From Bacteroidota bacterium (GTDB lineage Bacteria; Bacteroidota; Ignavibacteria; UBA10030), in the NCBI GenBank assembly GCA_035390885.1, contig DAOOUW010000003.1:1432-65431 (forward strand): DNA of 64,000 nucleotides, written 5' to 3'. This document shows positions 25,442-53,043 of this stretch, one piece after another. A program made the translations under genes and the position numbers. The notes beneath the pieces were generated by a model. That model had not been told where the DNA came from. It saw nothing but the letters and a program-made list of their open reading frames with translations, and did not search any database. How positions within the stretch are numbered: the stretch's first letter is position 1; the number at the start of each line of letters is the position of its first letter.

Positions 25442-25501
25442 AGAATAACTTCCTTCTTAATTAATGAAGATCATTTCCCAAACAATTGATATTTATTGTA
25501 A

Positions 25502-28116: not shown

Positions 28117-28134
28117 TGCTTTTTCATCCTTCCA

Positions 28135-30468
28135 TCAATGAATAATGACAAACTTACCATGTGCACGATCGCCTGTGTCTAGATCTTCAACAACAAAGAA
28201 ATAGACGCCAGATGCTATACGCTGGTTGTTGCGGGAAATCTGGAACCACTCCGTTGAATAAGTATCCGATCGATGCTCTATCGTTCCAACTAATTGTCCA
28301 CTGTATGAAAATATTCGAATGTTACTTCTCGAAGGCAGTCCATAAAAACATATCTTGTCGTGAATATCTCCCATCTTTGTTGAGCCGCCAAAATTCGATG
28401 CAACAATCAAGGGGTTGGGGGCAACATATACTTTACCCAATTTTGAGACCGCGCCTTTTTGTGTTTCATGATATGTAATATTTGTCCACCCGCTTTTTGT
28501 ACCTAATGAGTCGACTGTAAGTACTGCATAGTAATAATTTTCACTTATCAGGCTTGAGGTATCTCGTACTACATAACATCCCGGATAATTAACGTCAATA
28601 TTATAATATTGTGGAGCACGACGTGTGATACTATCAATAACTTTCCATGGACCGAGTGCATCAGGAGACTTAAGAACTAAGTAATGACTAAACCCTGAAC
28701 GTATTCTCCCTTGTACCGCTGTAGAGCTTTCAAAGTCCTCTACTGCTGTTGACCACACAATAATATTTTTAAAATCTGCCTGATTATGAACTTCAATTAT
28801 AGGACTCGGAAGTGGAATATAAGGAATTTGGTATACACCTTTTGCCGGTGATATTTCTGCTTTGTATTGTTCTGTATCATATTTTTTATATGGCTGACCA
28901 GTATAAATCTGAATAGCACGATCAGCAACCTGACGTAACGAAATTACAGGTTCTGGATCATCTGTTGAAATCTGTCCTGCCACATACCAGGGTAGTGGAT
29001 ATTTTTTTAAATAAGCGCTTCCCATATAGGGATAGTTTGCATGAATGCCGGGGTAAGTTATTGAATCGTACCAACTCACAACTGGCTTGTACCAACCTGT
29101 TGACTGCCCGCTTGGCTCTGTAGAAGCTCCACCTGCATCACGGAGCACAGTATCTGCAGCTGTTCCAGGTCCATAGCCAACCAATTGAGCAATAGCAAAC
29201 CGTACTGGTACTCCTGGCTTAAATACGTATGGGCCAAATGATGTATAATGGAGAGTAGTTTGTGAATAATTACCATTACTCAACGCACGAGGTTTTGCTC
29301 GCCCATGCCAATACTTCATAAGTTCTAGATTTTTTGCGGCATCGATTGATGCATAAGGATAATTAAAATTTGCCCAACTAGTAGAATCAGCTGAACCAGC
29401 CTTCATATCGAAGGCTGAGTATGGACGACTCAACGACAAATCTAACATAGCTCCAATTTGAGTGTCGTAAAGCGCCCGGTTTCTATTTGGAATTTGTTGC
29501 GTAACATAAGGCTGACGGAATTTACCAAGTTCGTCCCAAACTCGAGTACTATCGGTTCCGCTATATAACGTTCTCCATTGTGGTTGAAGTTGCGTCGTAT
29601 CATAATGCAAAACCATATATCCAACAGCTTGAGGCGCGTTTAATCCTCCACGATTTCCTTCTGTAGACCACACATTAAAATACTTTTCTTCCGGGAAACC
29701 ATTTCTTGTATGGACATAAGATAAATACCGTGTAAAATTATAGCGTGCATAAATTTCTTTTGAACGAGTGGTATTTGAACCCTCTTGCCATAATCCACCG
29801 TATTTTCTTTCCATCCCAAACGCTGAAGGTGCAATTGCTGCCCCAAAGACAACAAAACCATCAGGATATTCAATAGTATCTATATTCACAATTTCATATT
29901 CAATAATGACAAACGCATCATAACCACGATACCCCCATGCACGACTTGTCTGTTTTACTTCTAGCTTCATTGGTTCAATTGTTTGGTATTTTGCAATAAT
30001 AATCTCTTCAGCTTCATTTGGGTCATAGTTAGGATTTAATGTCCCATCTTCAAGAATTGGATAATTCTCTTTACGTGAAATTCCAATGGCTTTAACATAT
30101 ACATCTTCAATCTGGATAGTTCCACCACTTCCATCTCCCATAATACCACATGCTCGGCGCACTTTTTGTCCATCAATTGTTGCACTTAAAAGAACACCAG
30201 CGCCAAACGAATTATGATGTCCCAGATATTCAAAGTTATCCAAAAAGATATTGCCTTCTGAAGGGGGCCATTCCCACGAAGATGTCTTCTTCGTAATACC
30301 TACCTCTTGTGCATTGCTCGCATTGAATGGCCTGCCTATTTCACCGGTATAATACATAGTTTGGCGTAGTAGGCTTCTTACGTGAGTTTTATATCGTAAG
30401 CTCTGTTGTGCAAAAGCTGACATCGCACAAATACTCAATAAAATCATTACTATGTTAATTCTTTTCAT
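28135..30468 (-). CDS. 777-aa secreted protein of unknown function with T9SS-type C-terminal domain
   Basis: Signal peptide MKRINIVMILLSICAMSAFAQQ with no lipobox Cys. No catalytic motif recognised. The C-terminal ~90 aa (KVYVAPNPL...IRIFSYSGQLV...ASGVYFFVVEDLDTGDRAHGKFVIIH) look like a Por_Secre_tail/FlgD-Ig CTD. Confidence 0.6.
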   Translation of the reverse strand: MKRINIVMILLSICAMSAFAQQSLRYKTHVRSLLRQTMYYTGEIGRPFNASNAQEVGITKKTSSWEWPPSEGNIFLDNFEYLGHHNSFGAGVLLSATIDGQKVRRACGIMGDGSGGTIQIEDVYVKAIGISRKENYPILEDGTLNPNYDPNEAEEIIIAKYQTIEPMKLEVKQTSRAWGYRGYDAFVIIEYEIVNIDTIEYPDGFVVFGAAIAPSAFGMERKYGGLWQEGSNTTRSKEIYARYNFTRYLSYVHTRNGFPEEKYFNVWSTEGNRGGLNAPQAVGYMVLHYDTTQLQPQWRTLYSGTDSTRVWDELGKFRQPYVTQQIPNRNRALYDTQIGAMLDLSLSRPYSAFDMKAGSADSTSWANFNYPYASIDAAKNLELMKYWHGRAKPRALSNGNYSQTTLHYTSFGPYVFKPGVPVRFAIAQLVGYGPGTAADTVLRDAGGASTEPSGQSTGWYKPVVSWYDSITYPGIHANYPYMGSAYLKKYPLPWYVAGQISTDDPEPVISLRQVADRAIQIYTGQPYKKYDTEQYKAEISPAKGVYQIPYIPLPSPIIEVHNQADFKNIIVWSTAVEDFESSTAVQGRIRSGFSHYLVLKSPDALGPWKVIDSITRRAPQYYNIDVNYPGCYVVRDTSSLISENYYYAVLTVDSLGTKSGWTNITYHETQKGAVSKLGKVYVAPNPLIVASNFGGSTKMGDIHDKICFYGLPSRSNIRIFSYSGQLVGTIEHRSDTYSTEWFQISRNNQRIASGVYFFVVEDLDTGDRAHGKFVIIH

Positions 30469-30502
30469 ATCCTTATCCTACATAAATTATTTTATAGAAC
30501 TG

Positions 30503-33409
30503 TTAAAAATCTATTGCTATACCCAGATTGTATGAGCGTGGTGAATTACTATATAATAGAAATGAATGATCGACCGGATATGTTACATCCGACTCACCTG
30601 GATAATTATCCCAATAGAGTGCACCACGAGTTATGTTCTCAAGCGGATACGATTCAAAGTTGGGCAATATTTGATTACCATCAACCTTGTTTTCACTATA
30701 GAAAATATAATTATAGTTATAAATCTTATTATCAAACAAATTAAACACTTCAAAGTAAAGAGTAGCTTTTGTTCCAAAGAATTTTGTAATTGTTTTTGAA
30801 ATGCGCATATCGGTATTGTATTCAGCAGGACTTCTATACTCATTAACAGCACCAAGATCTTTGGAAGAGGTGTAGGGACGACCGCTGCGTGCAAAACTCC
30901 TTACTGAAAATGCTGTCGATCCAAATGGATAAATACTCCCAAACTTCGGTCCCCAATTATCATCCGTCGCATACGTGAGTGTAGCAATTAAATTGTGTGT
31001 TCGATCGAAGTTTAACAATACGTCACGAACAGGAACCTTTTGTAAATCTGTGGAACTTGTACCATCGTCATACCGAGTAACCACCCAAGGCGCATTTGTT
31101 GGTGATGCACTTTTTCCCGTAGCAACGCTATATTGATAATTTAACGATCCCGTTAAAGCTCCGCGCTTTTTACTTAGCACAACCCTGAAACCGCGAATAT
31201 CTGCATAGGCGCGATTAAAATAAGATTGAAATGAGACATTTGATTGCATCTGATCAACGATAGTGGCAACTTCAATTAAGTTCTTTACGTCTTTGTACCA
31301 GCCACTAACATCCACTGTAAATCCTTCACCCAGTCCCTGTATAATGCCGACGTCGTAACTATTGGTTGACTGCGGTTTCAGTGTTGAATTACCGATCATA
31401 TAAGGAAATTCTCCTTCTCTCGTTACCTGCACCCTGTTGCCAATCATATACTGAAACGGAGGTCTCTGAAGAAATACACCATAGTTCAAATGGAATACTG
31501 TTGAAACTGAAACAGGGAAGGATATACCAATACGTGGTTGTAATCTTCCAATAGGATTAGCTTTCGTTTTCGGCGCATTGTCAGGATCTTGTATTCCTCT
31601 CCCTGTCTCTTCATCAATTACCACAAAGTATGGATTGAAGAAGTTTTCGTAGTAATAGTTATTAGAATTCCATACATCCCAACGCAACCCAACTTTTGCA
31701 ATCATACCTTCAAATTCCATCTTATCTTGTAAATAAATTCCGGCTTCCCAAGGTTCGCCAGTATATTTTGTTTTTGATATACCGCCCATGGACTGAATGT
31801 TATAGACATTATCAACGCGCAAAAAATAGTAATTTGCTTGTATACCGCCATTAAGCATGTGTGAATTTGTGACCTGGCTAGTAAATGAAGCATCAAGCGA
31901 TATGGTTGCAGTTCTTTCATTAGAGAAGTTGCCCTGTGTATTTCCCAAGTAGGAAAACGTCTTATTTGTAAAACCATCAAAAGAGAATAATGAACCCGTA
32001 CGGAAAATTACACCGCTTCCAGTTTGAACATTTATTGCGTCGGGAATAATTGTATCATACCATGGAGTTGTACCAAGACGGTACTCTGTACGAAGTCCAT
32101 TAAGTTTAATATCATAAAATGTTTTAGCGCTAAGCGCTTTCGTATAGCGTAAACCAAACTGGTGGTTCATACGTTGACGGTATTGAATGCCAAGAATCCG
32201 ATCCCACATCCAGCCATAGAAACCTGTACCTCCAGAGAAATAATTCTCAAATTCATACTGATAGCCGCCGCTGACTTTGAACGCCGCACCTTGACCTAAA
32301 TCGAATGCAACATTTCCCATGACTTGCCTTTGCTCGTCAGGTTGTTGAGTTGGAAGTATAGGATTTTCTATATTCGACCTGAAAGCCATAAACATTGTAA
32401 CTCCCTCGTCAATCGGTCCTCCTGTAGCGCCTTCAACTGCATAATCAATCCGTTTTGTATAATCAGCATCTCCTTCACGAGCTACAATCTGATCCCAAAC
32501 GGCTTTACCTACCCTAGCTGTAAGCATAGTATCATTTGCGAAAAGCGAATTCACCCATTTAAAAAGTGCTTTCCCATCGTTCTTTTTCCCAAGCCAAAAT
32601 TCTTCATCTGCAAGGAGCATCATATATGGTTGCGCTTTAACATCAAAAATATTTGCTCCCCAATGTTTTTTACCCGGCAACCGCATTCGCGATTCAAAGT
32701 GTGAACGCCATTTATCTGACTTACCTTCTTTCATTGTAATGTTTACCACGCCCGATTGAGCATTCCCATATTGTGCGTCGAAGCCGCTTGTGATAACTTC
32801 AATTTCTTCAACCGCGCTAACAATTGGCAAAAATGCACTAGAGTTATCTAGAGGGTTATTAATGCCCATTCCTTGCAAAGTGTATAACTCTTCGTTTGTA
32901 CGCCCACCTCGAAAGTGCCCGTCTGTAACATCGGCGGCAAGTCCAATAACATCACCAACATCTCGTACACCTGCAAGAGATTGTACATCCTCCGGTCGTA
33001 CGATTGCACTCGTCGATGTTTTTTCTGGCTCGACGTCAGGACGCGTCGCTTCTACAACGATTGCTTCTTGCTCGATTGCTGTCTGTTTAAGATCAAAATT
33101 CAGCGTCGTCGTACGTCCTGAATTTACAATAACATCCTGCACAATGACTCGCTCGTATCCAATCATCGAAGCTTGTACTTCATATTTTCCAGCAGGAATA
33201 TTCAAGATAAAATAATTTCCATCAAGGTCAGAAGCTGCGCCAAGGCTCGTTCCACGAATTACAACATTCGCTCCAATGAGCGGCTCGCCAGTTTGAGCAT
33301 CCTTCACAACACCTGATATTTTCCCTCCGGTTTGTGCAGAGAGAATACTCAGCGTGCAACACAGAGCCACGCTAAGTATGAGCATTCTGTATATTACTCG
33401 TTTTGCCAT
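30503..33409 (-). CDS. TonB-dependent outer-membrane receptor with CarboxypepD_reg N-terminal domain
   Basis: GKISGVVKDAQTGEPLIGANVVIRGTSLGAASDLDGNYFILNIPAGKYEV is the carboxypeptidase-regulatory-like domain. A plug region follows (IVRPEDVQSLAG...RGGRTNEELYTLQGMGINNP). The barrel ends ...LGIAIDF. Confidence 0.88.
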   Translation of the reverse strand: MAKRVIYRMLILSVALCCTLSILSAQTGGKISGVVKDAQTGEPLIGANVVIRGTSLGAASDLDGNYFILNIPAGKYEVQASMIGYERVIVQDVIVNSGRTTTLNFDLKQTAIEQEAIVVEATRPDVEPEKTSTSAIVRPEDVQSLAGVRDVGDVIGLAADVTDGHFRGGRTNEELYTLQGMGINNPLDNSSAFLPIVSAVEEIEVITSGFDAQYGNAQSGVVNITMKEGKSDKWRSHFESRMRLPGKKHWGANIFDVKAQPYMMLLADEEFWLGKKNDGKALFKWVNSLFANDTMLTARVGKAVWDQIVAREGDADYTKRIDYAVEGATGGPIDEGVTMFMAFRSNIENPILPTQQPDEQRQVMGNVAFDLGQGAAFKVSGGYQYEFENYFSGGTGFYGWMWDRILGIQYRQRMNHQFGLRYTKALSAKTFYDIKLNGLRTEYRLGTTPWYDTIIPDAINVQTGSGVIFRTGSLFSFDGFTNKTFSYLGNTQGNFSNERTATISLDASFTSQVTNSHMLNGGIQANYYFLRVDNVYNIQSMGGISKTKYTGEPWEAGIYLQDKMEFEGMIAKVGLRWDVWNSNNYYYENFFNPYFVVIDEETGRGIQDPDNAPKTKANPIGRLQPRIGISFPVSVSTVFHLNYGVFLQRPPFQYMIGNRVQVTREGEFPYMIGNSTLKPQSTNSYDVGIIQGLGEGFTVDVSGWYKDVKNLIEVATIVDQMQSNVSFQSYFNRAYADIRGFRVVLSKKRGALTGSLNYQYSVATGKSASPTNAPWVVTRYDDGTSSTDLQKVPVRDVLLNFDRTHNLIATLTYATDDNWGPKFGSIYPFGSTAFSVRSFARSGRPYTSSKDLGAVNEYRSPAEYNTDMRISKTITKFFGTKATLYFEVFNLFDNKIYNYNYIFYSENKVDGNQILPNFESYPLENITRGALYWDNYPGESDVTYPVDHSFLLYSNSPRSYNLGIAIDF

Positions 33410-33459
33410 TTGTACTCCTTAGTTCCTTAATGACAAGTTAATAATGACTTACACCACAG

Positions 33460-34815
33460 TTATTTTTTTGTATTCACAACAACGTTGATCAAATCAAAAT
33501 TTTTGACATTCTCAATGACATTTGGCTCGGCAACATTATCGAATTTACAATTCTCGATGTGAACATTCGTCGCAGGGGAATACCCAAACGCCCGTATCCA
33601 AATTCCATAATGGCTTTTCTCACAAACTACATCTCGAACATCAACATTCCTGACAATCGGCGTAAAAGAACCTTTATCAGCCTCTTCATAGTAAAAATCA
33701 ATTTTAATAACAGCTTCAGCAACTTGACCAACTTTGATATTTCTCATAAACACATTTTCAACAACGCCGCCGCGCATCGCATTCGTCTTAATTCTTAACG
33801 CACGATCGAGACTTGGACTGTCCATCACATTGTTTTCAATGAAGACGTTTCTCACACCGCCAGATATTTCACTTCCGATGGAAACACCTCCATGCCCATC
33901 GTTCATCGTACTATTCTCAACAATTATATTTTCGCAAGGGACATTGATTCTGCGCCCGTCGGCATTTCTGCCAGATTTGATCGCAATGCAATCATCGCCA
34001 TTCTTAAAGTAACAACCTCTGATAAGAACATCTTTACATGATTCGGGATCGATTCCATCATTGTTTGGACCCAAGCCAACCGTTTTTACATCAATAAAAG
34101 AGACATTAGTGCATAGCACCGGATTCAGAAACCACATTGGGGAATCCTTAAAAGTAACTCCTTCAACCAGAATATTCTTACATCGATATGGCTCAAAGAA
34201 ATTTGGTCGTAAATATGAGCCTTCGCCGCACACTCTTTTTTCTACTGGAACTCCTTGCTCAGCCATTTCAAAAAGTTTTTTCCGAGCATCTCGCTGACTT
34301 TGCAAATTTTTCCACTGCCACCAATTTGCATCGGAGGCTTGTCCATTCAAAACACCTTCGCCAGTAATTGCAATATTTTCCTGCTCCATTGCATAGATCA
34401 AGGGGGAATAATTCATACATTCCACACCTTCCCAGCGGCAAAATACTATAGGTAAATATTTCTTCGGATCTGTAAAAAACAGAATCTCCGCATCTTTCAT
34501 AATATGGAGATTGACATTGCTCTTGAGTACAATCGGACCTGTAAGATACTTGCCTGCAGGAACAATTACTCTACCACCGCCAGCTTTCGAACATGCTTCG
34601 ATCGCTTTTGCAAATGCTTTTGAGCAATCCTTTTTGCCATTGCCAACGGCGCCGTATTTCGTTACATCAAAATCTTTTGATGGAAAAGTTGGAGGAATGA
34701 TTTGTTTGAGGATAGTTTCTTTTGTTGACCAGTTAATATCTTGAGCTACAACAATACTACCAATAGTAACCACAGCAAAAATCATAATGGTTACTCTATT
34801 TATTTTTTTTATCAT
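33460..34815 (-). CDS. GH28 (exo-)polygalacturonase, secreted
   Basis: NNDGIDPESC, NGDDCIAIKSG, HGGVSIGSE and RIKTNAMRGG. N-terminal signal/anchor. Confidence 0.9.
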   Translation of the reverse strand: MIKKINRVTIMIFAVVTIGSIVVAQDINWSTKETILKQIIPPTFPSKDFDVTKYGAVGNGKKDCSKAFAKAIEACSKAGGGRVIVPAGKYLTGPIVLKSNVNLHIMKDAEILFFTDPKKYLPIVFCRWEGVECMNYSPLIYAMEQENIAITGEGVLNGQASDANWWQWKNLQSQRDARKKLFEMAEQGVPVEKRVCGEGSYLRPNFFEPYRCKNILVEGVTFKDSPMWFLNPVLCTNVSFIDVKTVGLGPNNDGIDPESCKDVLIRGCYFKNGDDCIAIKSGRNADGRRINVPCENIIVENSTMNDGHGGVSIGSEISGGVRNVFIENNVMDSPSLDRALRIKTNAMRGGVVENVFMRNIKVGQVAEAVIKIDFYYEEADKGSFTPIVRNVDVRDVVCEKSHYGIWIRAFGYSPATNVHIENCKFDNVAEPNVIENVKNFDLINVVVNTKK

Positions 34816-35075
34816 GAAGTCCTCACTCTACTTTTGATTTTACAAATATTGTGAGAGAATAATGGCGCTAACTTTTTTGAATTTTTATCTACACGCTAAT
34901 CGGCTAAAATATAAACTTCATTTAACTTCTTGTCAAGTTGTTTTAAGAACTTTTTATTTTTTCAAATTGAAGTTAGCAAGTATAACAATAAAACGGAAGC
35001 TAAATGAGACGAGATGCAGGAATACACTATTAAACGCATTGTCATTACGCTCAGTGGCAAAAAATTAAAGGTCCA

Positions 35076-35333
35076 TTATTTTTTCATACCCTGAATACAC
35101 TCCAACACTTTTTGAATACGCTTATCTTGCTCTGAACTGGAAAGCTCTGGATACGGTTCTTGTTGATAGAGAGTAATTATAATTTTTAAACTCCGTAACA
35201 GTGAAGCGCAATTTGAACACGTTTCTATGTGTTCACGAACTTTTTTGCAGTTGCGTGAACTTAGTTTTTCATCTAAATGCGTGCAAAGATAATCTGCAAC
35301 TTGTTTACAGCAGGGAGTTTGTTCCTTCTTCAT
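35076..35333 (-). CDS. Small soluble zinc-binding anti-sigma factor (ZAS, zf-HC2-like)
   Basis: 85 aa with no hydrophobic segment. HIETCSNC is the HxxxCxxC motif, and a CC pair is at residues 8-9. Its start overlaps the sigma-factor stop as ATGA (35330-35333). Confidence 0.75.
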   Translation of the reverse strand: MKKEQTPCCKQVADYLCTHLDEKLSSRNCKKVREHIETCSNCASLLRSLKIIITLYQQEPYPELSSSEQDKRIQKVLECIQGMKK

Positions 35334-35947
35334 ACTTCAATGTAGTCCTTCAATTGTTCCCGAAGAAAAAGACGAGCTCGACGCAATCTGGATTTTACCG
35401 CAGGAACAGAGAGCTTCAGTATCTTCGCAGTCTCTTCAGAAGATTTCCCTTCGATATCGCGCAATACAAATACAACTCGATATTCGAGCGGTAATTTTCG
35501 AATAGCCTCATCAAGGCGTCGTTGAAGTTCGTCATCCATTACTAATTCCAAAGGCGAAGCACGATGTGATTGCAATTCTAGCGTCCGAATCTCACCGGTG
35601 TGATGATCAAGAGAGATCTCGCTACCATCGAGAGAATGGGATGCCTGTGCTAATTTTGTCTTTCGATGTTTCATTTTACAGTTATTGACAACGATACTGT
35701 AGAGCCACGTCGAAAACTTTGCCTTTCCATCGAACTGATGAAGCTTCCGATAAACATTCACAAAGGTATCCTGCAAAGTTTCTTCAGCTTTCTCTCTATC
35801 GCGACACACTTTGTATGCAAAGCTGAAGACTAACGGCTCATACTTCTTGACGATTTTGGTAAATGATTGCTCGTCCCCTTGTTTTGCGGTACGAATAAGT
35901 TCCAGATCTTCTTGCGCATTTCTTATTTGTCGAACTTTAGCAGCCAT
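35330..35947 (-). CDS. ECF-type RNA polymerase sigma-70 factor
   Basis: Region 2 is FSTWLYSIVVNNCKMKHRK. Region 4 is SSEETAKILKLSVPAVKSRLRRAR. Confidence 0.9.
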   Translation of the reverse strand: MAAKVRQIRNAQEDLELIRTAKQGDEQSFTKIVKKYEPLVFSFAYKVCRDREKAEETLQDTFVNVYRKLHQFDGKAKFSTWLYSIVVNNCKMKHRKTKLAQASHSLDGSEISLDHHTGEIRTLELQSHRASPLELVMDDELQRRLDEAIRKLPLEYRVVFVLRDIEGKSSEETAKILKLSVPAVKSRLRRARLFLREQLKDYIEV

Positions 35948-35949
35948 CT

Positions 35950-38900
35950 CTACTCACAAAGAATTACAACATTTGTCTCACACGGGAGAGAGTTCTTCAC
36001 ATTTTGGTCATTTGCTCGAACACGAAAAACATTATTTCCTCTACGGAGAGGAACTTCCAGAAAATTTCCATACCCTATAATCATCTGCCCAGAAAACCAT
36101 TCAATTTTTATCGGTTGGTCTGCCGGTCGATTTAATTTGGGCGCTGTAAGCACAATTGCAGGATTCGACGGATTCCATTGGCGCTTCATTACTTGAGGCT
36201 CTTCAATAAATGCTAACGGTTCCCATCCGACAACTTCGATATTTCGTTCTTTGAGAATTTTTCCTTTCGGAGACCAGCCAAGCGTAAAAGTTTGACTTCC
36301 TTTTTCCACAATAATTTCTGAAACAAGCACAGCATCTTTAATAAAACCAACGTTCGGTATTGCAGTAACTTCCTGTATTTTTATCTCACTTCCAACAATC
36401 CAATTGACTGGAACATCAATTTCTTCGAGTCTTTGTACGGGTAGAATTTGCACAATGCGGGAAACGGAATCAATGGAATTCCGCAAACCTCTTTTGTCAT
36501 CGGCAACCAATGTTACTCGAACCGTTCCCTGTTTATTCCAAACGCCACGAGTCGAAGAAAGCGCCTCGTCGTTCATTTTCCAGATAAAGGAAAGCGTATC
36601 GCCATCGCTATCCACAAATGACGCAGGTTGTAATTCATACTCTTCACCTTCATAGAAAGAATTTGAAATATCAAACGTTACATCTGGCTTTGCATTTACG
36701 TATAAGGATTTTGTCTCTTCCACAATTCCTGAACTTGTTCCAGAATTATCTTGAATCGTCAAGGAGATTGTATGTGTACCAGCCGTTGGTAGTACGCATG
36801 CCGCAACCGAATTCGATGAATAATAAATCCCATCGAGCTGCCATTCATACTTCACAATGCTCCCATCAGAATCAGAGCACCTTGATGCATCCAGCACGAG
36901 CGCATCTCCGAGCGCTATATCAGAAGGAATACTCCATTCACAACGAGGCGGAATATTGACCTGCAGTTGTTGCTGAGCAGTGGCAGCGCTGCAAGGGGAA
37001 CTGGATTCTATTTCGAGTTCTAATTGAATTGAATAAACACCCGGCCTCGAAAATTGGATTTGAGTTTCCATTCCTTCTCGCATAAACACTGTATCCTGTC
37101 CATCAATGAGCCATCGTACGGAACGAATTGCCCCTTGATATGTCGACGGCGTTCCATCGAGTTCCACGATCTCATTGATATTGACATTCGATGGAATTGA
37201 AAATGCAGCAATTGGTCCTTCCACAACATGCACTACCGAAGTTGCTTGATGAACACGTGTACAATTTCCGCTTCCATTTGCAAGTACAGTCAACGTTGCT
37301 GTGTAAGCACCTCCTTTTGTATAAACATGCGAAACTGTCTTACCGAAAGCGCTCGTTCCATCTCCAAAATCCCATGTAAATAAACCAATGGAACTCTTCG
37401 GAGCAACACTTTGACTGCCATCGAAGGTAAGAGGAACATTAGCGCAGACCGTTGTATCTGAAAAACTCTGAATCGCATGGGGAGAAGTTTCCACAAACAC
37501 AGGAATTGTAACAACAGGAGGATGTTCTACAATCCCATCGCTTAACATTAGCTTGACCAGATATATTCCGGGTTCCGTGTAAGTATGCGCAGGATTTGTT
37601 TCGTCGGAAAAAGCGTTATCGCCAAAATCCCAATGTGTTGTAATAGCGTCATTATCCGGATCATAACATTTTGAACTGTTGAAGAGCGCCACCTGTCCAA
37701 CACAGGTAGAAATACTTGAATCAACAATTGCTACAGGCGGCCTATTAATATTTACACGAATTGTTTGGCGTACAATCGAGTTCGTTTTGTTCTGACCATC
37801 GTTCACTCCTACTGTAAGAACATGAGTGCCAGCCGATGGAGCTTGCCACCAAAATGAAGCTTCGTTTCGATGCGTCCCATCAGGAAGAACCCAGTCGAAC
37901 GTTAGCGGCTGACCATCAATATCGTAGCTTTGAGACGCATCAAGAAAAATACGCCGCTCGTTCGAACGAATCGTTTGCTTCGTAACAAGCATTGGTGGAT
38001 TATTAACAAGCACAGGAATTTCTTCTACGACAACCCCATTCTTCAGTTTTGTTCCATCATCAACGATGATTTGTACATACTTTGTTCCAGATGTCGAAAA
38101 TCTTTTCCTTACAAAACTTCCATGGAATGTTGAGTCATCAGGGAATTTCCATGTAACCATCACTGGCTTGCCTTCAGGATCGTTGCTTCCTCGAGCGTCA
38201 AATGTTACAATCTCATTCGGTTCAGGAACGGATGGGGAAAAGGTATAGCGCACGTTCGGCGGAAAATTAACATGCACCATCGCTGTTTTAACCCCTATTG
38301 CATCATCGAATTGAGAGTTATCTTTTACTTGAAGCGTTACAGTATAGTCCCCTGGCTCTGGAAATTCCAATGATGTTTTTGATTCATTCGAAATTTCTTT
38401 GCCGTTGATAAACCATTGGTAAAGAACAATCGAACCATCGGAATCAACGCTTTGTGAACCATCAACGAACAATGGAACTTGTGGTTCCCAGAGCGGAGGT
38501 ACATCAAAATTTGCTTTCGGATTTTTATTGATTGTAATTGTATGACGTACAAACTGACTACTATTCGAAAGATTGTTTCCATCGTTGACAGTAAGAGTTA
38601 CTGTGTAAGTTCCACTGCGCTGATAGAGATGAGAAACCGTTTTTCCAACTGCTGTACTGTCATCGCCAAAATTCCATCTGTACGTAAGTTGATCTTGATC
38701 TGCATCCCACGATTTTTCTGCAGAGAAATGAATGAGTGATGAATTCGATTTCTCTGGAGCAATGATAACCGGAACCGGAGGCGCATTGACTTTAATGGTT
38801 TTTGTAAGAGTTTGAACAGAATTTTCTACACCCTCGCCATCATCAACAATTAAAGATACCGAGTATGTACCCGGTTCTTCGAAGGAAAGACTTGCAACAG

Positions 38901-40653
38901 GACTTGAAAGTTCAGAGCCATCGCTTACTTTCCAAAAATATTTCAGTACTGGATTATCGGGGTCGAATGATGTCTTTGCAGAAAGGATAATTTCATCGCC
39001 AGGCGCAACCTTCGATGGCAATGTGAATGCCGGATGAGGTTCTGCATTTACCCTGTACCGAAATGAAGTAGCGTACGATCCGTTTGTAGCGCCTGTGCCA
39101 TCTGAAAGTGTTGCTGTGAGGATGTACACACCGGGCTCTTCCTGTAACACCTGCACTGCTTCTTCCGTATGCGAGCCAATAATACCAATTCCATCCCAAC
39201 GAATCGTTAGAGAATCACCATCTGGATCATAAGCGCCATGGAGCGAGAAGAAAGCTGAAGTAGCGCGAGCAATAACGGAACTACCCTGTATCTCTCCATA
39301 CGGTTGACTATTAACACGAATCATCTTCAACGCAGTTCCACTATTGCAGAGTGAATTCGTTGAACCATCGTAGACAACGAGCTTTACTTCATACTTTCCT
39401 GGTGAACCACTGAAGAAGCGAAGAAATGGCTGATTCCCTCTGTACTCGCCATTGACAAACCATTCATATTTCAGCGGCTGCTGTTCTGGATCGAATGATT
39501 GAGTTGCAGAAAAAGTTACAACTTCATTCGGCGAAACAATTTCTTTCGCAACAGAAATTTTAGCGACAGGAGGCTCATTGAGGTGAATAGAAAAATCGTG
39601 CACCCAATATTTTGGAAAATATAATCCTCGCGTTGGAAGGATAACCGTAGCAGCGTAAGTTCCCGCCTTCGGAAATTCAACGACGATAGAATCCCCTTCA
39701 TAACGTTCGACTCCGACAGTCCATTTGGGATTGCCTTCTCCCAGCAGCTTTCGCGTCTGTTCATTGAGTCGAATTTTCATTCGAAGACAACTTGTATCGG
39801 GAACTTGCTCTATTGTAATTTTAGGTTTGGTCGGAATATGGACAACAATTGGATTGATGTTCCAGAGAATCGGATCGCTGCTTTGCGTTGTTATGACAAG
39901 ATTATTAACTCTGATTGCAGAACCTGCAATTCCTATTCCCCATTCGTTCTCTTCTCTCTGGTCAAACTGAAAATTTTTATCAACAGGAAGATGTGAAAAT
40001 TTGCCATAGCTATCTCTTACTACCACTTGAGAACCTTCTGCGCCTTTTACAACCAACTGTAAAGGCGCCGTCATATCTCTGGTTGCAGGACAAAATTGAG
40101 CTTCCTCATACGCGGAAAGACCATTGATACACACGGGAAGATTTTTTGCATAGAGCTTCCACGATTCGTTTCCACTGAGAGACTCAACGCGAATTTTAAA
40201 TGCGTTGACGCCATCTCCATCGCCGCCGATTGTTCGAAGAAGCCATGCTTTACATTTATTGTTGACTGTCAGCGTATCGAGCGGAATCCAGCGTTGAAGA
40301 TATTTGCTTTCGCTTTCCGTCGTCACGCTCTTCCGAAGTTCCAGAGAACCGTCGGAAGTTTGTGCAAAAAGTTGAAATGTTGTCGAAGTGTTGATGTATC
40401 CTCTGACATCGGCATTTCCACCAATAGCGGCGTCAAATATTTCCAGAATTCCTTCTCCTCCATTGTCAGGCGCTTCGATAAGAAAATCGTATTGATGAAT
40501 TTCATCGCCAGTCTGTTGTACAACTGCCTTCTTCCCGGCAACAAACAGGTAAACATCCTGTCCAAAGAGCAGCATTGGAAATAGCGACAGGATCAAAAGT
40601 ATAACTGAACGAACCACAAAATTTGAAATCTTGATTTTATGCATTTTCATCAT
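35950..40653 (-). CDS. 1567-aa exported protein with about 12 PKD-like repeats and a unique N-terminal domain
   Basis: Start at ATG 40653, preceded by GGGAGGTAAA. Signal/anchor ISNFVVRSVILLILSLFPMLLFGQ. Twelve recurring PKD signatures include YRWNFGDDS..GTYTVTLTVNDG, THWDFGDNA and FTWDFGDGT. The TAG stop lies 2 nt before the ECF sigma ATG. Confidence 0.8.
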   Translation of the reverse strand: MMKMHKIKISNFVVRSVILLILSLFPMLLFGQDVYLFVAGKKAVVQQTGDEIHQYDFLIEAPDNGGEGILEIFDAAIGGNADVRGYINTSTTFQLFAQTSDGSLELRKSVTTESESKYLQRWIPLDTLTVNNKCKAWLLRTIGGDGDGVNAFKIRVESLSGNESWKLYAKNLPVCINGLSAYEEAQFCPATRDMTAPLQLVVKGAEGSQVVVRDSYGKFSHLPVDKNFQFDQREENEWGIGIAGSAIRVNNLVITTQSSDPILWNINPIVVHIPTKPKITIEQVPDTSCLRMKIRLNEQTRKLLGEGNPKWTVGVERYEGDSIVVEFPKAGTYAATVILPTRGLYFPKYWVHDFSIHLNEPPVAKISVAKEIVSPNEVVTFSATQSFDPEQQPLKYEWFVNGEYRGNQPFLRFFSGSPGKYEVKLVVYDGSTNSLCNSGTALKMIRVNSQPYGEIQGSSVIARATSAFFSLHGAYDPDGDSLTIRWDGIGIIGSHTEEAVQVLQEEPGVYILTATLSDGTGATNGSYATSFRYRVNAEPHPAFTLPSKVAPGDEIILSAKTSFDPDNPVLKYFWKVSDGSELSSPVASLSFEEPGTYSVSLIVDDGEGVENSVQTLTKTIKVNAPPVPVIIAPEKSNSSLIHFSAEKSWDADQDQLTYRWNFGDDSTAVGKTVSHLYQRSGTYTVTLTVNDGNNLSNSSQFVRHTITINKNPKANFDVPPLWEPQVPLFVDGSQSVDSDGSIVLYQWFINGKEISNESKTSLEFPEPGDYTVTLQVKDNSQFDDAIGVKTAMVHVNFPPNVRYTFSPSVPEPNEIVTFDARGSNDPEGKPVMVTWKFPDDSTFHGSFVRKRFSTSGTKYVQIIVDDGTKLKNGVVVEEIPVLVNNPPMLVTKQTIRSNERRIFLDASQSYDIDGQPLTFDWVLPDGTHRNEASFWWQAPSAGTHVLTVGVNDGQNKTNSIVRQTIRVNINRPPVAIVDSSISTCVGQVALFNSSKCYDPDNDAITTHWDFGDNAFSDETNPAHTYTEPGIYLVKLMLSDGIVEHPPVVTIPVFVETSPHAIQSFSDTTVCANVPLTFDGSQSVAPKSSIGLFTWDFGDGTSAFGKTVSHVYTKGGAYTATLTVLANGSGNCTRVHQATSVVHVVEGPIAAFSIPSNVNINEIVELDGTPSTYQGAIRSVRWLIDGQDTVFMREGMETQIQFSRPGVYSIQLELEIESSSPCSAATAQQQLQVNIPPRCEWSIPSDIALGDALVLDASRCSDSDGSIVKYEWQLDGIYYSSNSVAACVLPTAGTHTISLTIQDNSGTSSGIVEETKSLYVNAKPDVTFDISNSFYEGEEYELQPASFVDSDGDTLSFIWKMNDEALSSTRGVWNKQGTVRVTLVADDKRGLRNSIDSVSRIVQILPVQRLEEIDVPVNWIVGSEIKIQEVTAIPNVGFIKDAVLVSEIIVEKGSQTFTLGWSPKGKILKERNIEVVGWEPLAFIEEPQVMKRQWNPSNPAIVLTAPKLNRPADQPIKIEWFSGQMIIGYGNFLEVPLRRGNNVFRVRANDQNVKNSLPCETNVVILCE

Positions 40654-40865
40654 TTTACCTCCCACGAATGTGAACCAAAGTTCATCCGATCTTTGATTGA
40701 TTCGAATTTTATAGTAACCGTGTCTCCAAATATCAGAATAAACGAATGCCCGGTGAAATCGCTCATTTCTGCGCTTTCTTCTCGACATCGAGTGCGCGGA
40801 AAACTTGCTCCGATACCTGAGCATTCACTCTGAGCGCTACACAGCACAACATTGCAAAAAGAATC

Positions 40866-42968
40866 TTACTCATTTTTCGCATTATCGTGATCGCTTTCCA
40901 CTGGAAGTGAAATAGTAAATTTACATCCTATCTCTGAATTCGATTCGAGAGAAATTGTACCGCCGTGGTAAGTAACAATTTCTTTGACATAGGCGAGTCC
41001 CAATCCTGTTCCAACTTCTTCCGTTCCTTTTTTGTTCGATCGTACACGATAGAATTTTGTAAATAATTTTTCTTGAGCTTCCAGAGGAATGCCGTATCCA
41101 TGATCTGTAATAGAAAAAATAATCGCTCCATTCTCAAAGGAAAGCTGAACTAGGATTGAACGATTTTGATCGCCGTACTTAATTGCATTCGTAACCAAAT
41201 TCATCACCGCCTCACGAATAAGATCAGGGACAACTGTAGCATACGGAATCGCACCGCGAATTTCAACTTCCACCGTAAGATTTTTCCCCCGTAACTGCGG
41301 CTCCAGCATTTCAATGACACTCTGCACCAATGCAACAATATCTGTTGGCGCTTTAGGATATTCAACGCTTCTCGATTCCAATCGCGAAATATCCAGAAAC
41401 CGATTGATAAGCGCAAGGAGATGATTTCCGCCTTGAAGAATATATTGCAGAAATTCTCTTCGTTCTTCAGGCGTAACATCTTCATCGTGGGAAAGTAGTT
41501 CGGCAAATCCCACAATGCTCCCCACTGGACTTCTCATCTCGTGCACAATGACATTCATCATTTCAGACTTCATCTTATCGATAATTCGATCGTTTGTCAG
41601 GTCGTGGAGAATAAGCAACGAACCAAGCGGGTGAGCGTCTCTCGATATTATGCTATCGTTGAGACGATAGTAGTGCACTTCATCATTTGGGAGATGTATT
41701 TTCAACTCTACCTGCCTGCTCTCAATAACATTCCTATCTTGAATATCTTCTTCTACAGATTCCTTTGACTTTGAAATTTCGGGTCGCGAGAGAAATTCCT
41801 CTTTGGATACTATTTCTCCTTCTGGCATCAGCGTCGTACATAATTCATCAAAACGAGCATTACGGAAAACAAATTTCCCTTCCGCATCGGTCAATCCAAT
41901 CAGATCATCGCTGTGCATCATAAAAAGTTTGTTCTTCCACTCTTCAACAATGATCCGCTCGACATTGAGTTGTTGATACCGTTGTAAGGACTGGCGCATG
42001 AGTTCTATTGTTTCTGCCATTCGCTGTAAATTCTTCATCCCAACTTCACGTATTGGCTGAGAGAAATCCAATGAACCAAGCTTCTCAACATCTTCTGCAA
42101 GGCGTATAATTGGCTTACTAATTTGATAGGAGAGAATCCAACCAGCAATAAGGAGAATAACAAAGAGAGAGAGAACGAATACTGATGAGTGCAGGAGTAG
42201 TTCTCGCACAGGCGCACGCACTTCGGATTCTGGCACTACAACTATAAATTTCAACGGAACGGTTCGGAACATCGATGCCATTCCATACCATTTCTGCTTC
42301 CCGATCTTGACTTTCTGTAACGAATTGACATGGGTTTCACCTGAACAAAAATATTTCATCATTGCCGTATCGCACGATGCGTAGAGAAGACAAGAATCGG
42401 ATGCAAGCATAACTCTGTACTCTTCCCCTAAAGGAAGACGCTGGAGAACAGAATGAAAATCTGGCGCATGCCACCATATCGCAGTATAGAAAGTTGTGCC
42501 CGCAAGATAACTCTTCGAGCGCGTAACAACAACCGAACTCTGGGGAATCCATCCAACGCTCACTAAAGAATCCGACGACGGCAGTAAGAAGTTGTCGACA
42601 GAATCAGGAATCGTTAAAGAGTACTGAGTATTTTGACTTTCGAGTTTGTCCGGCAAATCTTGAGAGTAGATACGAATGCGAATTATTTCCGGATGCAAAA
42701 GCATTGTATGGTAAATAAATTGCTCGCCATCTTTTGGTTGTTCTTGAAGATGGAGAGAAATACCGCGTGTCGCTTGAATCCACATCGCTATTTGTTTCTC
42801 GAGCGTTTCAACTGTATAGGCTTCGACCTGCTGGATAATTGTGATGCGCTCGGAAAGAACACGGCGTTCATAAATAGGACGCACAACAAACCATAGAACC
42901 AGGAGACTTAATACCGCAATAGCGACGCTTCCAATAAATATTCTGTTCTGTAATGATAATTTTTTCAT
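40866..42968 (-). CDS. Sensor histidine kinase (TM, extracytoplasmic domain, TM, HAMP, PAS-like, HisKA/HATPase)
   Basis: H-box VHEMRSPVGSIVGFAELL, N-box NLVTNAIKYG, G1 DHGYGIP, G2 GTGLGLA. Two hydrophobic segments bracket a ~240-aa region. Confidence 0.9.
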   Translation of the reverse strand: MKKLSLQNRIFIGSVAIAVLSLLVLWFVVRPIYERRVLSERITIIQQVEAYTVETLEKQIAMWIQATRGISLHLQEQPKDGEQFIYHTMLLHPEIIRIRIYSQDLPDKLESQNTQYSLTIPDSVDNFLLPSSDSLVSVGWIPQSSVVVTRSKSYLAGTTFYTAIWWHAPDFHSVLQRLPLGEEYRVMLASDSCLLYASCDTAMMKYFCSGETHVNSLQKVKIGKQKWYGMASMFRTVPLKFIVVVPESEVRAPVRELLLHSSVFVLSLFVILLIAGWILSYQISKPIIRLAEDVEKLGSLDFSQPIREVGMKNLQRMAETIELMRQSLQRYQQLNVERIIVEEWKNKLFMMHSDDLIGLTDAEGKFVFRNARFDELCTTLMPEGEIVSKEEFLSRPEISKSKESVEEDIQDRNVIESRQVELKIHLPNDEVHYYRLNDSIISRDAHPLGSLLILHDLTNDRIIDKMKSEMMNVIVHEMRSPVGSIVGFAELLSHDEDVTPEERREFLQYILQGGNHLLALINRFLDISRLESRSVEYPKAPTDIVALVQSVIEMLEPQLRGKNLTVEVEIRGAIPYATVVPDLIREAVMNLVTNAIKYGDQNRSILVQLSFENGAIIFSITDHGYGIPLEAQEKLFTKFYRVRSNKKGTEEVGTGLGLAYVKEIVTYHGGTISLESNSEIGCKFTISLPVESDHDNAKNE

Positions 42969-43116
42969 TTCATCTTTTCCAAGAATCGAATAACTTCAGT
43001 GGAATATGGAGATAAAATTTGAAAAGATAAACTCACCTTTCTGAAATTTTAATCTTTCCCAAACTTGTAATAGGCGCTTGAATGAGATTTTGAGATAAGT
43101 TTTGGTAGCTCTGAAT

Positions 43117-43364
43117 CCAAAAATTACGCATTAGAAATTTGCAAAGATGGTTGCTTCAATTATGCTTTACGGCACATCAGCAACCAATTTCTGGACGGTG
43201 GCTGAGTAGAACAGCAGTCCGTATCGAAGCCACCGCGAAACATTCTGCAACTCACAGGTTCACCCGTGGATGAAAAACAAAGTTGCCTGTTGCCTCGATA
43301 CGCTCTTCGAGCTACTCGGCGACCAAATTCTCGACGGTGGGTAACAGTACTTATCGAAGGCAGC
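43117..43364 (+). repeat. Tandem double copy of the intergenic repeat (left-flank module, core 1 at 43149-43234, linker module, core 2 at 43282-43364)
   Basis: CCAAAAATTACGCATTAGAAATTTGCAAAGA is followed by GGTTGCTTCAAT...GACGGTGGCTGAGTAGA...CGTATCGAAGCCACC. Then comes CTGCAACTCACAGGTTCACCCGTGGATGAAAAACAAAG, then GTTGCCTCGATACGCTCTTCGAGCTACTCGGCGACC...CTTATCGAAGGCAGC. Confidence 0.85.
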
Positions 43365-43427
43365 GTGCTCTATTTAATAGAAGGAAGCAGAAAAAGCAAG
43401 AATAGAATCCCTTCGCTGAAAATTGGC

Positions 43428-44393
43428 TTAACGCTTCATTTGTATTTCATTCCAGATTAGTGCGGCTGAGCCAAGGATTGCGGCAGAGCCACGAGGCAAT
43501 CCTGAATGAAGCAACTTAACTTTATTCCTAAAAATTGGAAACAGGAAATGTTCGAGCCACCGTCGCGTTGGGGCAAAAATCCATTCACCTGCTTCCGCAA
43601 CTCCGCCAAAGAGAATAATCGCTTCCGGACTTGTATGAGCAACACTATCCGCAAGTTTCATCCCAAGAATTTTTCCAGTAAACTCAAATGCTTCTCTTGC
43701 CAACTCATCGCCGGCTTCTGCCGCCTCGAACACTTTTTTTGACGTAAGTTCTTCAATTGGAATAGAACGTATCACACTCGGTGTTGAACGAAGCTGTTTC
43801 AACTCCTCCACAGTGCGACAAATGCCGCCTGCAGAAGCGTATGTTTCAAGACATCCTTGCCTGCCGCAACCGCAGAGACGCCCATTTGGATCAACGATGG
43901 TATGACCGATTTCTCCTGCAAATCCGTCGTGACCATAGACCAAAGTGCCATCAACGACGATTCCACTTCCAAGTCCTGTGCCCAGAGTTATTTCGATAAA
44001 ATGCTTCATTCCTTTTGCAGCGCCAAATTGCATTTCGCCTAACGCTGCTGCATTGGCGTCGTTTGTGATTGCAATTGGAATGTCGTACCACTGTCGTAAC
44101 AATTGAACTACATTGACATATCCCCAGCTTAAGTTTGGCGGATGCTCGATAGTACCCTTGAAGTAATTTCCATTTGGAGATCCAATTCCAATACCAACTA
44201 ATTCCAAATCTTTTGGCAATTCATGGTGGAGTTTCTCTGCTTCCGAATTAAGCCTATTGAAGAATTCATCCGCAGGATTGTGAGCATTTGTTGCAATTGA
44301 GGTATGAGCCAGAATGTTTCCCTCATTGTCCACAAAACCAAGTTTTGTATTGGTTCCGCCAATATCAACTCCAAGTACGATTCTTTTTCCCAT
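43428..44393 (-). CDS. ROK-family glucokinase
   Basis: LGVDIGGTNTKLGFV is the ATP-binding motif. CGCGRQGCLETYAS is the ROK zinc motif. Confidence 0.88.
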   Translation of the reverse strand: MGKRIVLGVDIGGTNTKLGFVDNEGNILAHTSIATNAHNPADEFFNRLNSEAEKLHHELPKDLELVGIGIGSPNGNYFKGTIEHPPNLSWGYVNVVQLLRQWYDIPIAITNDANAAALGEMQFGAAKGMKHFIEITLGTGLGSGIVVDGTLVYGHDGFAGEIGHTIVDPNGRLCGCGRQGCLETYASAGGICRTVEELKQLRSTPSVIRSIPIEELTSKKVFEAAEAGDELAREAFEFTGKILGMKLADSVAHTSPEAIILFGGVAEAGEWIFAPTRRWLEHFLFPIFRNKVKLLHSGLPRGSAAILGSAALIWNEIQMKR

Positions 44394-51050: not shown

Positions 51051-51202
51051 AAGCGTCTTTCATTGAATGTTTGAATTTCGATGATGTAAGATACAAGAAA
51101 CTTCTTTCTTAAACATCATTGGTAGGAATTTTTCGCCGCGCTGGTTTCTTGCTCCTATCAGTAAATTTCACTACCATTTCCAAAAGTATAAATCAAATTG
51201 TT

Positions 51203-51868: not shown

Positions 51869-51924
51869 AACTTTTCACTTCCTCAATCGTAAGCAAAAAG
51901 TAAGCAAAGAATCCTCGACACAAT

Positions 51925-52782: not shown

Positions 52783-53043
52783 CAGGCTTGGTTTTTAGCG
52801 CTTTCCACCCCTTTCTTTCAGAAATGACTTTGCTTTCACACATTCCATGACGTAATGAACAGCGCTTAAGTTAATCTATTCCATCTAAGGATATTCAAGC
52901 GGTTTCCGAACACTTGAGTATTCATCTCCGTATGTAGAAAAAATTTAATTTATCTAAGTAAATTTTCCTCCTTGATATTATTGCTTCTACAGCAGTGTTT
53001 TTCTAAATTCCAAACAACGTGGATCAGTTATATTAAGTAAATT

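Follow-up and report, generated by a model that had tools for sequence, protein, structure and literature searches.

A soluble zinc-binding anti-sigma factor and its sigma factor behind a histidine kinase and a giant PKD-repeat protein in an Ignavibacteria operon

The window analysed here is a stretch of 64,000 nucleotides from a Bacteroidota bacterium of the Ignavibacteria (assembly GCA_035390885.1, contig DAOOUW010000003.1, positions 1,432 to 65,431); all coordinates below follow window numbering. Between about 35 and 43 kb it carries, in order and all on the minus strand, a gene for a sensor histidine kinase, the scar of a deleted gene for a FecR-domain protein, a gene for a giant exported protein with PKD domains, a gene for a sigma factor of the extracytoplasmic function (ECF) type and a gene for a small, soluble zinc-binding anti-sigma factor (ZAS). 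With a probability of roughly 0.55, we read the locus as two independently conserved signalling modules that became joined in one operon in a small Ignavibacteria-type clade, with the ZAS setting the activity of the sigma factor in the cytoplasm. Sequence comparison with related loci shows the separate conservation of each module, the tightness of the junctions, the deletion of the FecR gene and the possession, by the neighbouring pectinase cluster, of a sigma-70 promoter of its own. The locus is a local rearrangement of known signalling parts rather than a demonstrated new signalling route; the coupling of the two modules in this clade is real as a matter of gene organisation, and a functional coupling is an unproven proposal.

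Gene order and junctions

An earlier reading of the window (hereafter the original prediction) had drawn attention to the genes of this locus, their junctions, the length of the ZAS and a neighbouring receptor without an STN domain, and all of these features were found again when the DNA was re-checked (Table 1). The giant gene runs from an ATG at 40653 to a TAG at 35950 and encodes an exported protein of 1567 aa, as described; Pfam marks 11 PKD_4 stretches in it. Its stop codon is followed by AG and then by the sigma ATG at 35947, which confirms the reported spacing of 2 nt, and the sigma stop overlaps the ZAS start in the sequence ATGA, likewise as reported.

Table 1. Features of the locus and of its downstream boundary, in window coordinates.
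Feature	Coordinates	Strand	Evidence or remark
Sensor histidine kinase, 700 aa	40866..42968	-	Pfam HisKA + HATPase_c; first gene of the kinase/FecR/giant module
Scar of deleted FecR-domain gene	40650..40873	-	tblastn with relatives' FecR-domain proteins
Giant exported all-beta protein, 1,567 aa	35950..40653	-	Pfam PKD_4 7e-142, 11 stretches
ECF sigma factor, 205 aa, RpoE/SigW-like	35330..35947	-	Pfam Sigma70_r2 + r4_2
Soluble zinc-binding anti-sigma factor (ZAS), 85 aa	35076..35333	-	zf-HC2 1.2e-7
TTGACA-17-TATATT, a sigma-70-type promoter close to consensus, in front of the GH28/TonB-like pectin cluster	34908..34936	-	Promoter-like site scan; downstream boundary of the unit

The sigma/ZAS pair and its family

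The sigma factor matches Sigma70_r2 (2.8e-18) and Sigma70_r4_2 (7.6e-17) in Pfam and TIGR02937 with 108.6 bits (cut-off 42.9), and, as its 205 aa hold regions sigma-2 and sigma-4 only, it is an ECF (group IV) factor. Its finer grouping rests on comparisons with NCBIfam and the PDB. Among solved structures the matches were SigW (1e-22), AlgU-type factors (2e-22), RpoE (1e-18) and SigH (5e-13). None of the NCBIfam equivalogs reached its cut-off, the SigW-, SigM- and RpoE-type models outscoring SigH_actino, and the latter (TIGR02947) gave 69 bits against a cut-off of 251, which leaves the protein outside the SigR/SigH group. Homologues numbered 2,115, and the top ones, 60-76% identical, come from metagenome-assembled genomes (MAGs) of Ignavibacteria/Bacteroidota.

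The anti-sigma factor matches zf-HC2 with 32.1 bits against a cut-off of 22.2 (E 1.2e-7) and belongs to the ZAS class by its H35-x3-C39-x2-C42 sequence, the full set of motif residues being C9, C17, C29, H35, C39 and C42. The original description of it as a protein of only 85 aa without a transmembrane (TM) segment holds, the highest 19-residue Kyte-Doolittle mean being 0.97. In comparisons with the PDB, the best solved match was the cytoplasmic domain of RsiW (0.015), RsrA following with an E-value of 1.

How typical this pair is can be judged from its relatives. Scanning one genome per species brought up 209 of them, from which 80 loci were kept; together with three further contigs and the window itself, the family sample came to 84 loci. 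A small ZAS open reading frame (ORF) stands behind the sigma gene in 77 of the 84, most of the others being cut by contig ends, and every one of the 77 recovered ZAS proteins is 60-113 aa long, lacks a membrane segment and has a maximum hydropathy below 1.0. In their alignment C17, C29, H35, C39 and C42 are conserved, and C9 is present in all but two; C9 lies 26 residues before H35 and C29 six before it, which are the spacings of C11 and C31 in RsrA (PMC3177212), so that the fourth-ligand cysteine and the solubility of the SigR-RsrA type are both present. Outside the two special clades described below, a thiol-redox-type gene (thioredoxin, OsmC, rhodanese, YgaP-type membrane protein, CoA-disulfide reductase, TlpA or DUF6132) occurs within 5 kb of the sigma gene at 58 of 75 loci. 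On these comparisons the sigma/ZAS pair is an autonomous unit of a large, Ignavibacteria-wide family for which a soluble ZAS is the norm. Redox sensing of the SigR-RsrA kind, in which an oxidant causes zinc loss, disulfide formation and release of the sigma factor, is a putative trait of this pair; it is suggested by the solubility, the extra conserved cysteines and, indirectly, the neighbours of the family, a combination that is not a validated signature. The original prediction had regarded the route into the sigma factor as non-standard, a view that is supported only partly here: soluble ZAS proteins are already known to control sigma factors, SigR-RsrA being the example, soluble anti-sigma factors have been reported in 10 ECF groups (PMC7826278), and the ZAS is soluble in 77/77 members of this family.

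The resemblance to SigR-RsrA and SigH-RshA of the Actinobacteria (ECF12) extends to a small (~85-105 aa), soluble anti-sigma factor encoded directly downstream of an ECF sigma factor, to a Cys-x25-His-x3-Cys-x2-Cys zinc site with a further Cys six residues before the His, and to the thioredoxin-type genes that adjoin most family members; moreover, RsrA is the only NCBIfam model that the ZAS touches (antisig_RsrA, 1.5e-6, below cut-off). In contrast, the sigma factor of the window is closer to SigW/RpoE than to SigH (1e-22 vs 5e-13) and comes from another phylum, only one of four redox-determinant residues is kept, and in the clade with the giant gene the pair has neither its own promoter region nor redox neighbours. 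By analogy, then, the pair would work like SigR-RsrA yet lie outside that group, because neither the sigma grouping nor the redox determinants agree with membership. SigW-RsiW of Bacillus subtilis, for its part, supplies the best solved-structure match for both proteins, and the flank EH(I/L)ETC of the H-x3-C-x2-C motif is near-identical in the two anti-sigma factors. RsiW has a TM helix and an extracytoplasmic domain, which are the targets of PrsW/RasP, and is removed by regulated intramembrane proteolysis. The 85-aa ZAS, unlike RsiW, has no membrane or extracytoplasmic part, and proteolysis of the RsiW type therefore cannot apply to it.

About a dozen other Ignavibacteria loci (L004, L010, L012, L016, L025, L026, L031, L036, L050, L058 and L063) hold a second ZAS-like ORF 0.5-1.5 kb downstream of the first, and their genomes thus encode two small ZAS paralogues in tandem after one sigma factor.

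The kinase, FecR-domain protein and giant-protein module

The kinase consists of a TM segment, an extracytoplasmic domain of ~230 aa, a second TM segment, a HAMP/PAS-like region, HisKA (2e-15) and HATPase_c (2e-25), and thereby has what is expected of the kinase of a classical two-component system; in NCBIfam it is PnpS/WalK/PhoR-like, below cut-off. No Pfam family matched the sensor domain of the window kinase. Among 13 homologues of this domain, one gave a weak dCache_1 match (5e-4), and an identity as CHASE2 was rejected, as 0/13 matched that family. Orthologues of the kinase are 53% identical in L001 and 25-30% identical in the distant loci L085-L091 and L096. The absence of an adjoining response regulator, which the original prediction had pointed out, is borne out: no receiver domain was found within about 12 kb of the kinase in the 64-kb window, and the only two that the window holds (55000-56400 and 61246-62388, on the other strand and in unrelated contexts) lie 12 and 18 kb away, so that the adjacent regulator of a two-component system is lacking. 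No response regulator adjoins the kinase in L081, L082, L001 or L086-L091 either, the sole relative with one, a divergent response regulator, being L096.

The giant protein comprises a signal peptide, an N-terminal region of ~320 aa with about three beta-sandwich domains, 11 PKD domains and a C-terminal tandem Ig-like region of ~270 aa; no TM segment, type IX secretion C-terminal domain, catalytic domain or anchor was detected in it. AlphaFold2 models of its ends are all-beta, with a mean confidence (pLDDT) of 87 for the N-terminal region and 92 for the last 285 residues, and Foldseek searches with these models returned multi-Ig, adhesin, S-layer and GhpA-stalk-like matches only. As modelled, the protein would form a rod of about 17 Ig-like/PKD beta-sandwich domains. 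Its N-terminal ~320 residues define a rare family, with 30 representative clusters among 1.84 billion proteins, and the full-length members are all 1,554-1,635 aa long.

Distant relatives, at 27-38% identity, were collected by a metagenome scan with an alignment of the N-terminal region and by look-ups of the representatives. A trio of kinase, FecR-domain protein and giant protein, with tight or overlapping junctions, is present in L085, L086, L088-L091, L096 and L098. In none of the six loci that reach past the giant gene (L086, L088-L091, L096) does a sigma/ZAS pair follow; where flanks were examined (L086, L088 and L091), a Met-zincin gene precedes the trio and TrkA/TrkH genes follow it. 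The giant gene stands alone in L099 and, in L100, beside a divergent response regulator without a kinase or FecR gene. In L081, L082 and L001, relatives treated below, the FecR-domain protein is 591-593 aa long; behind a signal peptide it carries a FecR domain (PF04773, scoring above cut-off), and its C-terminal domains are Ig-like. As the window keeps the orthologous kinase and giant protein and the FecR member only as a scar, it carries a degenerate version of a module made of a kinase, a FecR-domain protein and a giant protein of ~1,570 aa.

Presumably, this module is a surface or periplasmic sensing unit whose output passes through an unlinked response regulator. An adjoining regulator is usually absent from the module, the exceptions being the trio of L096 and the giant gene of L100, and a regulator whose gene lies elsewhere is probably its natural output. 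The regulators of L096 (3167-3802, minus strand) and L100 (4424-5113, minus strand), both divergent from the module, have in common a C-terminal domain of ~90 aa without a Pfam match, which is Cys-rich in L096 (IPICANCKNIRDD...W...HGICPDC) and devoid of these cysteines in L100; a homologue of the two is encoded ~5 kb downstream of the sigma gene in L002 (~6877-7461, minus strand).

The gap between the kinase and giant genes deserves separate treatment. Its length of 212 nt was reported correctly, but it is not a plain spacer, because two remnants of the FecR-domain gene lie inside it. The 5' remnant is an ORF of 37 codons that begins MSKILFAMLCCVALRVNAQVSEQVFR and whose ATG at 40873 overlaps the kinase stop; the 3' remnant, of ~60 codons in another frame, ends GDTVTIKFESIKDRMNFGSHSWEVK and a stop codon (...SHSWEVK-TGA), and this TGA overlaps the ATG of the giant gene. 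When the FecR-domain proteins of L081, L082 and L001 served as tblastn queries, their C-terminal 60 residues were 33% identical to the 3' remnant (E 2e-6 in a small database) and their N-terminal ~41 residues (residues ~3-43) 32% identical to the 5' remnant. Relatives have the intact gene at the same position, and ~1.5 kb of it is gone from the window. The giant gene ATG at 40653 is preceded by GGGAGGTAAAATG, in which a strong Shine-Dalgarno sequence had been seen; the sequence is indeed present, and its GGGAGG corresponds to the codons W-E-V of the conserved C-terminus, (R/S)WEV, of the deleted gene. In intact relatives these codons may double as a coupling ribosome-binding site. The junction is identical in L095, an independent assembly of a 98.8%-identical strain, and for this reason the deletion is judged real and fixed in the species rather than an assembly artefact; L094, a third contig with 100% identity, breaks off within the scar.

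The pairing of a FecR-domain protein with a kinase has a described analogue. In the Burkholderia 'BiofilmReg' operon the order is response regulator, LysM/FecR protein, CHASE2 kinase and DUF4136 protein, and the Pseudomonas aeruginosa version consists of FecR and kinase only (PMC5192318). Operons of this type likewise link a periplasmic FecR-domain protein tightly to a membrane sensor kinase and in some cases lack the regulator gene (PMC5192318). Here, by contrast, the kinase has a sensor domain other than CHASE2, LysM is missing from the FecR protein, the giant PKD protein is a constant third member, and a sigma/ZAS pair is appended in one clade. The rare, strictly conserved trio of a kinase, a secreted FecR-domain protein and an all-Ig protein of ~1,570 aa is delineated here; it appears to be uncharacterised, spans at least two distant lineages and usually misses a linked regulator.

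Relation of the modules to each other and to the neighbouring genes

The order kinase-FecR-giant-sigma-ZAS was found only in L081, L082 and L001. L083/L084 have FecR-giant-sigma-ZAS, the L083 contig, on which no kinase is seen, starting inside the FecR gene, and the window has the full order minus FecR. Relative to the window, the sigma factors of these fused loci are 68-76% identical and the giant proteins (~1,565 aa) ~50% identical, and the junctions are overlapping or near-overlapping. A tree built from sigma plus ZAS groups the five fused loci with 100% bootstrap support and places this clade at roughly the same distance from every other. The original prediction had proposed a search for the giant/sigma/ZAS triplet in related genomes; its junctions are indeed tight and conserved in the five-genome clade, but a PKD neighbour is missing at 75/80 genome loci of the sigma/ZAS family. 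It had also named, as evidence that would speak against it, membership of the sigma factor in a soluble-ZAS family without a conserved PKD neighbour, and this is largely the situation encountered, the PKD family in turn occurring elsewhere without a sigma gene. An adenylate-cyclase neighbour of L001, considered as a feature of the clade, is not kept in the other members.

A second clade (L002, L003, L005 and L023; 100% support) has a gene for a 303-aa protein 29-36 nt upstream of the sigma gene and a gene resembling those of methyl-accepting chemotaxis proteins after the ZAS gene. The 303-aa protein (e.g., L003 9060-9971) is homologous to the N-terminal TM-sensor-TM part of the kinase and ends where HAMP would begin. 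A sister relation between this clade and the fused one was recovered in 0/100 bootstraps and was rejected; the sigma/ZAS tree accordingly lends no support to one ancestral fusion, a weak argument in view of its long branches.

As regards transcription, L082 and L001 have in common, before the kinase gene, the sigma-70-like sequence TTGAAG-N17-TATTGT, for which L081 has TTGACG-N17-TATTGT, and the 459-nt kinase upstream region of the window differs from the region with TTGAAG-N17-TATTGT in the relatives. This interval (42969-43427), which separates the sensor kinase from a ROK-family kinase gene, contains two copies of a segment of ~60 nt, visible as the repeat pairs 43177-43201 / 43316-43340 (84% identical) and 43215-43235 / 43345-43365 (81%); a search of the whole window against Rfam, repeat region included, gave no match. 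The last 260 nt of the giant gene hold no conserved internal promoter block and show codon-level conservation only, and the sigma factor and the ZAS are for this reason probably made from a long upstream transcript. Promoter motifs of the sigma factor were sought in the DNA before 74 related sigma genes, by counting bipartite k-mers and with a Gibbs sampler. One subclade (L011, L015, L018, L022, L037, L042, L044, L047, L049, L054, L057, L061, L068 and L070) has a clearly conserved block of 35 nt, TTTCTTT...ATCTCTT-CGTATCTT (TTTCTTT-N-ATCTCTT-(C/T)GTATCTT), ending ~8-12 nt before the sigma ATG, which holds an ECF-like CGTAT -10 element and would imply near-leaderless, autoregulated transcripts; the CGTAT element recurs in other sigma subclades. 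With a weight matrix of the block, one site per locus was found, before the sigma gene only, with none before redox genes and none in the window, and a relaxed regular expression matched once in 64 kb, where 1.3 matches were expected, and nowhere in L081-L083 or L001. In regions 2.4 and 4.2, the sigma residues of the fused clade are the same as those of the other members, so that promoter specificity is probably unchanged in that clade.

Downstream of the pair lies the pectin cluster, whose GH28 gene is preceded by TTGACA-N17-TATATT (34936-34908), the best promoter-like site in 34500-43600, with 11/12 matches; the same hexamers and spacing precede GH28 in L081 and L083. An ECF-type promoter, suggested for 34816-35075, is not supported, the site in that interval being the one just given. 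In L082, unrelated genes of the opposite strand come after the sigma/ZAS pair, and the pectin cluster is not downstream. Because it has its own conserved promoter and is absent behind the pair in L082, the cluster is best seen as an independent sigma-70-type unit, and the sigma factor as not linked to this polysaccharide-utilisation locus (PUL). The 968-aa receptor-like protein of the cluster (30503-33409) has CarboxypepD_reg at residues 31-119, directly behind the signal peptide, and no STN match in Pfam, in agreement with what had been reported of it; its NCBIfam matches are weak ones to SusC/TonB plug regions. An ECF sigma factor near a receptor of the TonB-dependent type, with a FecR domain (PF04773) encoded in the operon of the relatives, recalls FecI-FecR-FecA and the ECF/SusC-STN systems of Bacteroides PULs. 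Unlike in those systems, the relatives' FecR-domain protein is secreted, has no anti-sigma part in the cytoplasm and has been lost from the window, the receptor is without STN, the anti-sigma factor is an unrelated soluble ZAS, and the receptor cluster is on its own sigma-70 promoter; neither a membrane FecR anti-sigma factor nor an STN transducer exists at the locus. The expectation that a PUL-associated ECF factor should here use FecR and STN falls away on these grounds, together with the invariable solubility of the ZAS and the redox neighbours at 58/75 loci.

In the mechanism that we favour, zinc-bound ZAS would hold the sigma factor in the cytoplasm, and its release would follow when the zinc-cysteine site is oxidised, modified or freed of zinc, as inferred from the RsrA paradigm; control of the sigma factor would need no extracytoplasmic relay. 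In the fused clade, the pair would be made by read-through and translational coupling from the kinase/giant transcript, and since it has no intergenic promoter region of its own there, its abundance would follow the expression of the kinase/giant module. Among the three inputs originally put forward, redox or zinc control via the ZAS is thus the best supported, and the giant protein as a sensor and the kinase acting on sigma/ZAS are kept as rivals.

Several observations weigh against this mechanism. The redox sensitivity of RsrA is set by E39, E40, L45 and E46 (PMC3177212), and the window ZAS matches one of the four determinants (E37, then T38, A43 and S44); its flank EHIETC resembles EHLETC of the redox-insensitive RsiW. 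A thiol-redox neighbour is found at 0/9 loci of the fused and the kinase-less-sensor clades, and the copy in the window may be a re-purposed paralogue. The MAG SPRUCE 214 holds both types, the sensor-linked L003 and the redox-context L022, and at least the sensor-linked type is therefore a paralogue. The homologue of the kinase sensor domain directly upstream of the sigma gene in a second, non-sister clade, with a dN/dS of 0.27 (L003 vs L005) that points to purifying selection, may be a sign of a functional tie linking the sensor family with the sigma family. Lastly, neither the promoter nor the regulon of the sigma factor is definable from the motif searches.

Such a tie bears on the proposal that in the fused clade the kinase/FecR/giant module serves as input to the sigma/ZAS pair. 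A cue from the envelope or the cell surface, picked up by the giant protein and the sensor domain of the kinase, would then control the sigma factor by phosphorylation of sigma or ZAS, by sequestration of the ZAS at the membrane or by kinase-dependent transcription of the operon. A sigma factor as output would explain the missing response regulator, and no regulator adjoins the kinase in any member of the fused clade, where the kinase-to-ZAS junctions have stayed tight or overlapping in five genomes although the giant proteins are only ~50% identical; in addition, the kinase-less sensor homologue 29-36 nt upstream of the pair in the second clade is under purifying selection and never groups with the first, and both sensor-linked clades are without the family-typical redox neighbours. 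We nevertheless consider the proposal unlikely, given that six or more distant loci have the trio without a sigma gene and others the giant protein alone, that divergent regulators beside the kinase (L096) and the giant gene (L100) make a regulator the probable normal output, that neither the ZAS nor the DNA-recognition regions of the sigma factor have changed specifically in the clade, that the FecR component is dispensable in the species of the window, and that a histidine kinase acting on an ECF sigma factor or a ZAS is without known precedent. Its more specific form, in which a surface-sensing module with a Cache-like kinase captured the sigma/soluble-ZAS pair as its transcriptional output and the kinase, or in the second clade the kinase-less sensor paralogue, controls the ZAS without a response regulator, would be a hybrid between two-component and ECF systems and seems to us distinctly unlikely. 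In SigE-CseABC of Streptomyces, a two-component system controls the transcription of an ECF sigma factor, with CseB in the cluster and no anti-sigma factor. The present locus shares with it a sensor kinase gene and an ECF sigma gene in one cluster and differs in the lack of a regulator and the presence of a ZAS.

Distinctly improbable, too, in our estimate, is an accidental adjacency without regulatory meaning, in which the kinase/FecR/giant module is simply decaying in this lineage. The deletion of the FecR gene, fixed in two strains, would fit such decay, as would the 303-aa proteins (L002, L003, L005, L023), which end exactly at the HAMP start and in which just the N-terminal third of the kinase survives, as expected if a deletion had run from mid-kinase through the whole giant gene. 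All five clade members and the 98.8%-identical strain, however, retain unbroken the giant ORF of 4.7 kb and, as far as their contigs reach, the kinase, the 303-aa proteins are under purifying selection, and the overlapping stop/start junctions have been kept in the intact members, the window itself having the 212-nt scar. That the pair instead controls the adjoining GH28/TonB-like pectin cluster by an unconventional route we regard as very improbable: GH28, TonB-like, 777-aa and PorV-like genes do follow sigma/ZAS in the window, L081 and L083, yet the promoter before GH28 is a conserved near-consensus sigma-70 site and not ECF-type, unrelated genes on the other strand follow the pair in L082, the 75 other family members lie away from such clusters, and the receptor has no STN domain.

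If the pair is governed by its soluble ZAS as favoured here, an ECF sigma factor beside a polysaccharide-utilisation cluster need not regulate that cluster, and for this family in Ignavibacteria a soluble ZAS is the rule and no anomaly. Likewise, the recurrence of the kinase sensor domain beside one ECF/ZAS family in two sigma clades provides a testable case for cross-talk between two-component and ECF systems, and the natural deletion of the FecR gene a ready comparison of species with and without the FecR component.

Beyond the signalling genes, the pectin-degradation locus occupies a long same-strand stretch (18388-34815, minus strand) with two GH28 genes, the TonB-like receptor without recognisable Plug/STN matches in Pfam, a protein of 777 aa whose C-terminus is PorZ-like, outer-membrane proteins resembling PorV and BamG, and pectate-lyase-like and pectinesterase-like genes, the last two kinds assigned by eye from translations; its first five genes, from GH28 to the BamG-like one, are syntenic in L081 and L083. 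The two receiver domains of the window belong to other gene groups. In 51119-56400 (plus strand), a second, unrelated ECF sigma factor (51119-51868), 31% identical to that of the locus, comes first; behind it are encoded a protein of 285 aa that weakly resembles LiaF/toast-rack proteins, a TPR protein of 643 aa and a protein of 466 aa in which a C-terminal receiver is the only recognised domain. The other, at 61246-62388 (plus strand) and 18 kb from the kinase, is part of a receiver-SpoIIE (PP2C phosphatase) protein of the type used in partner-switching cascades.

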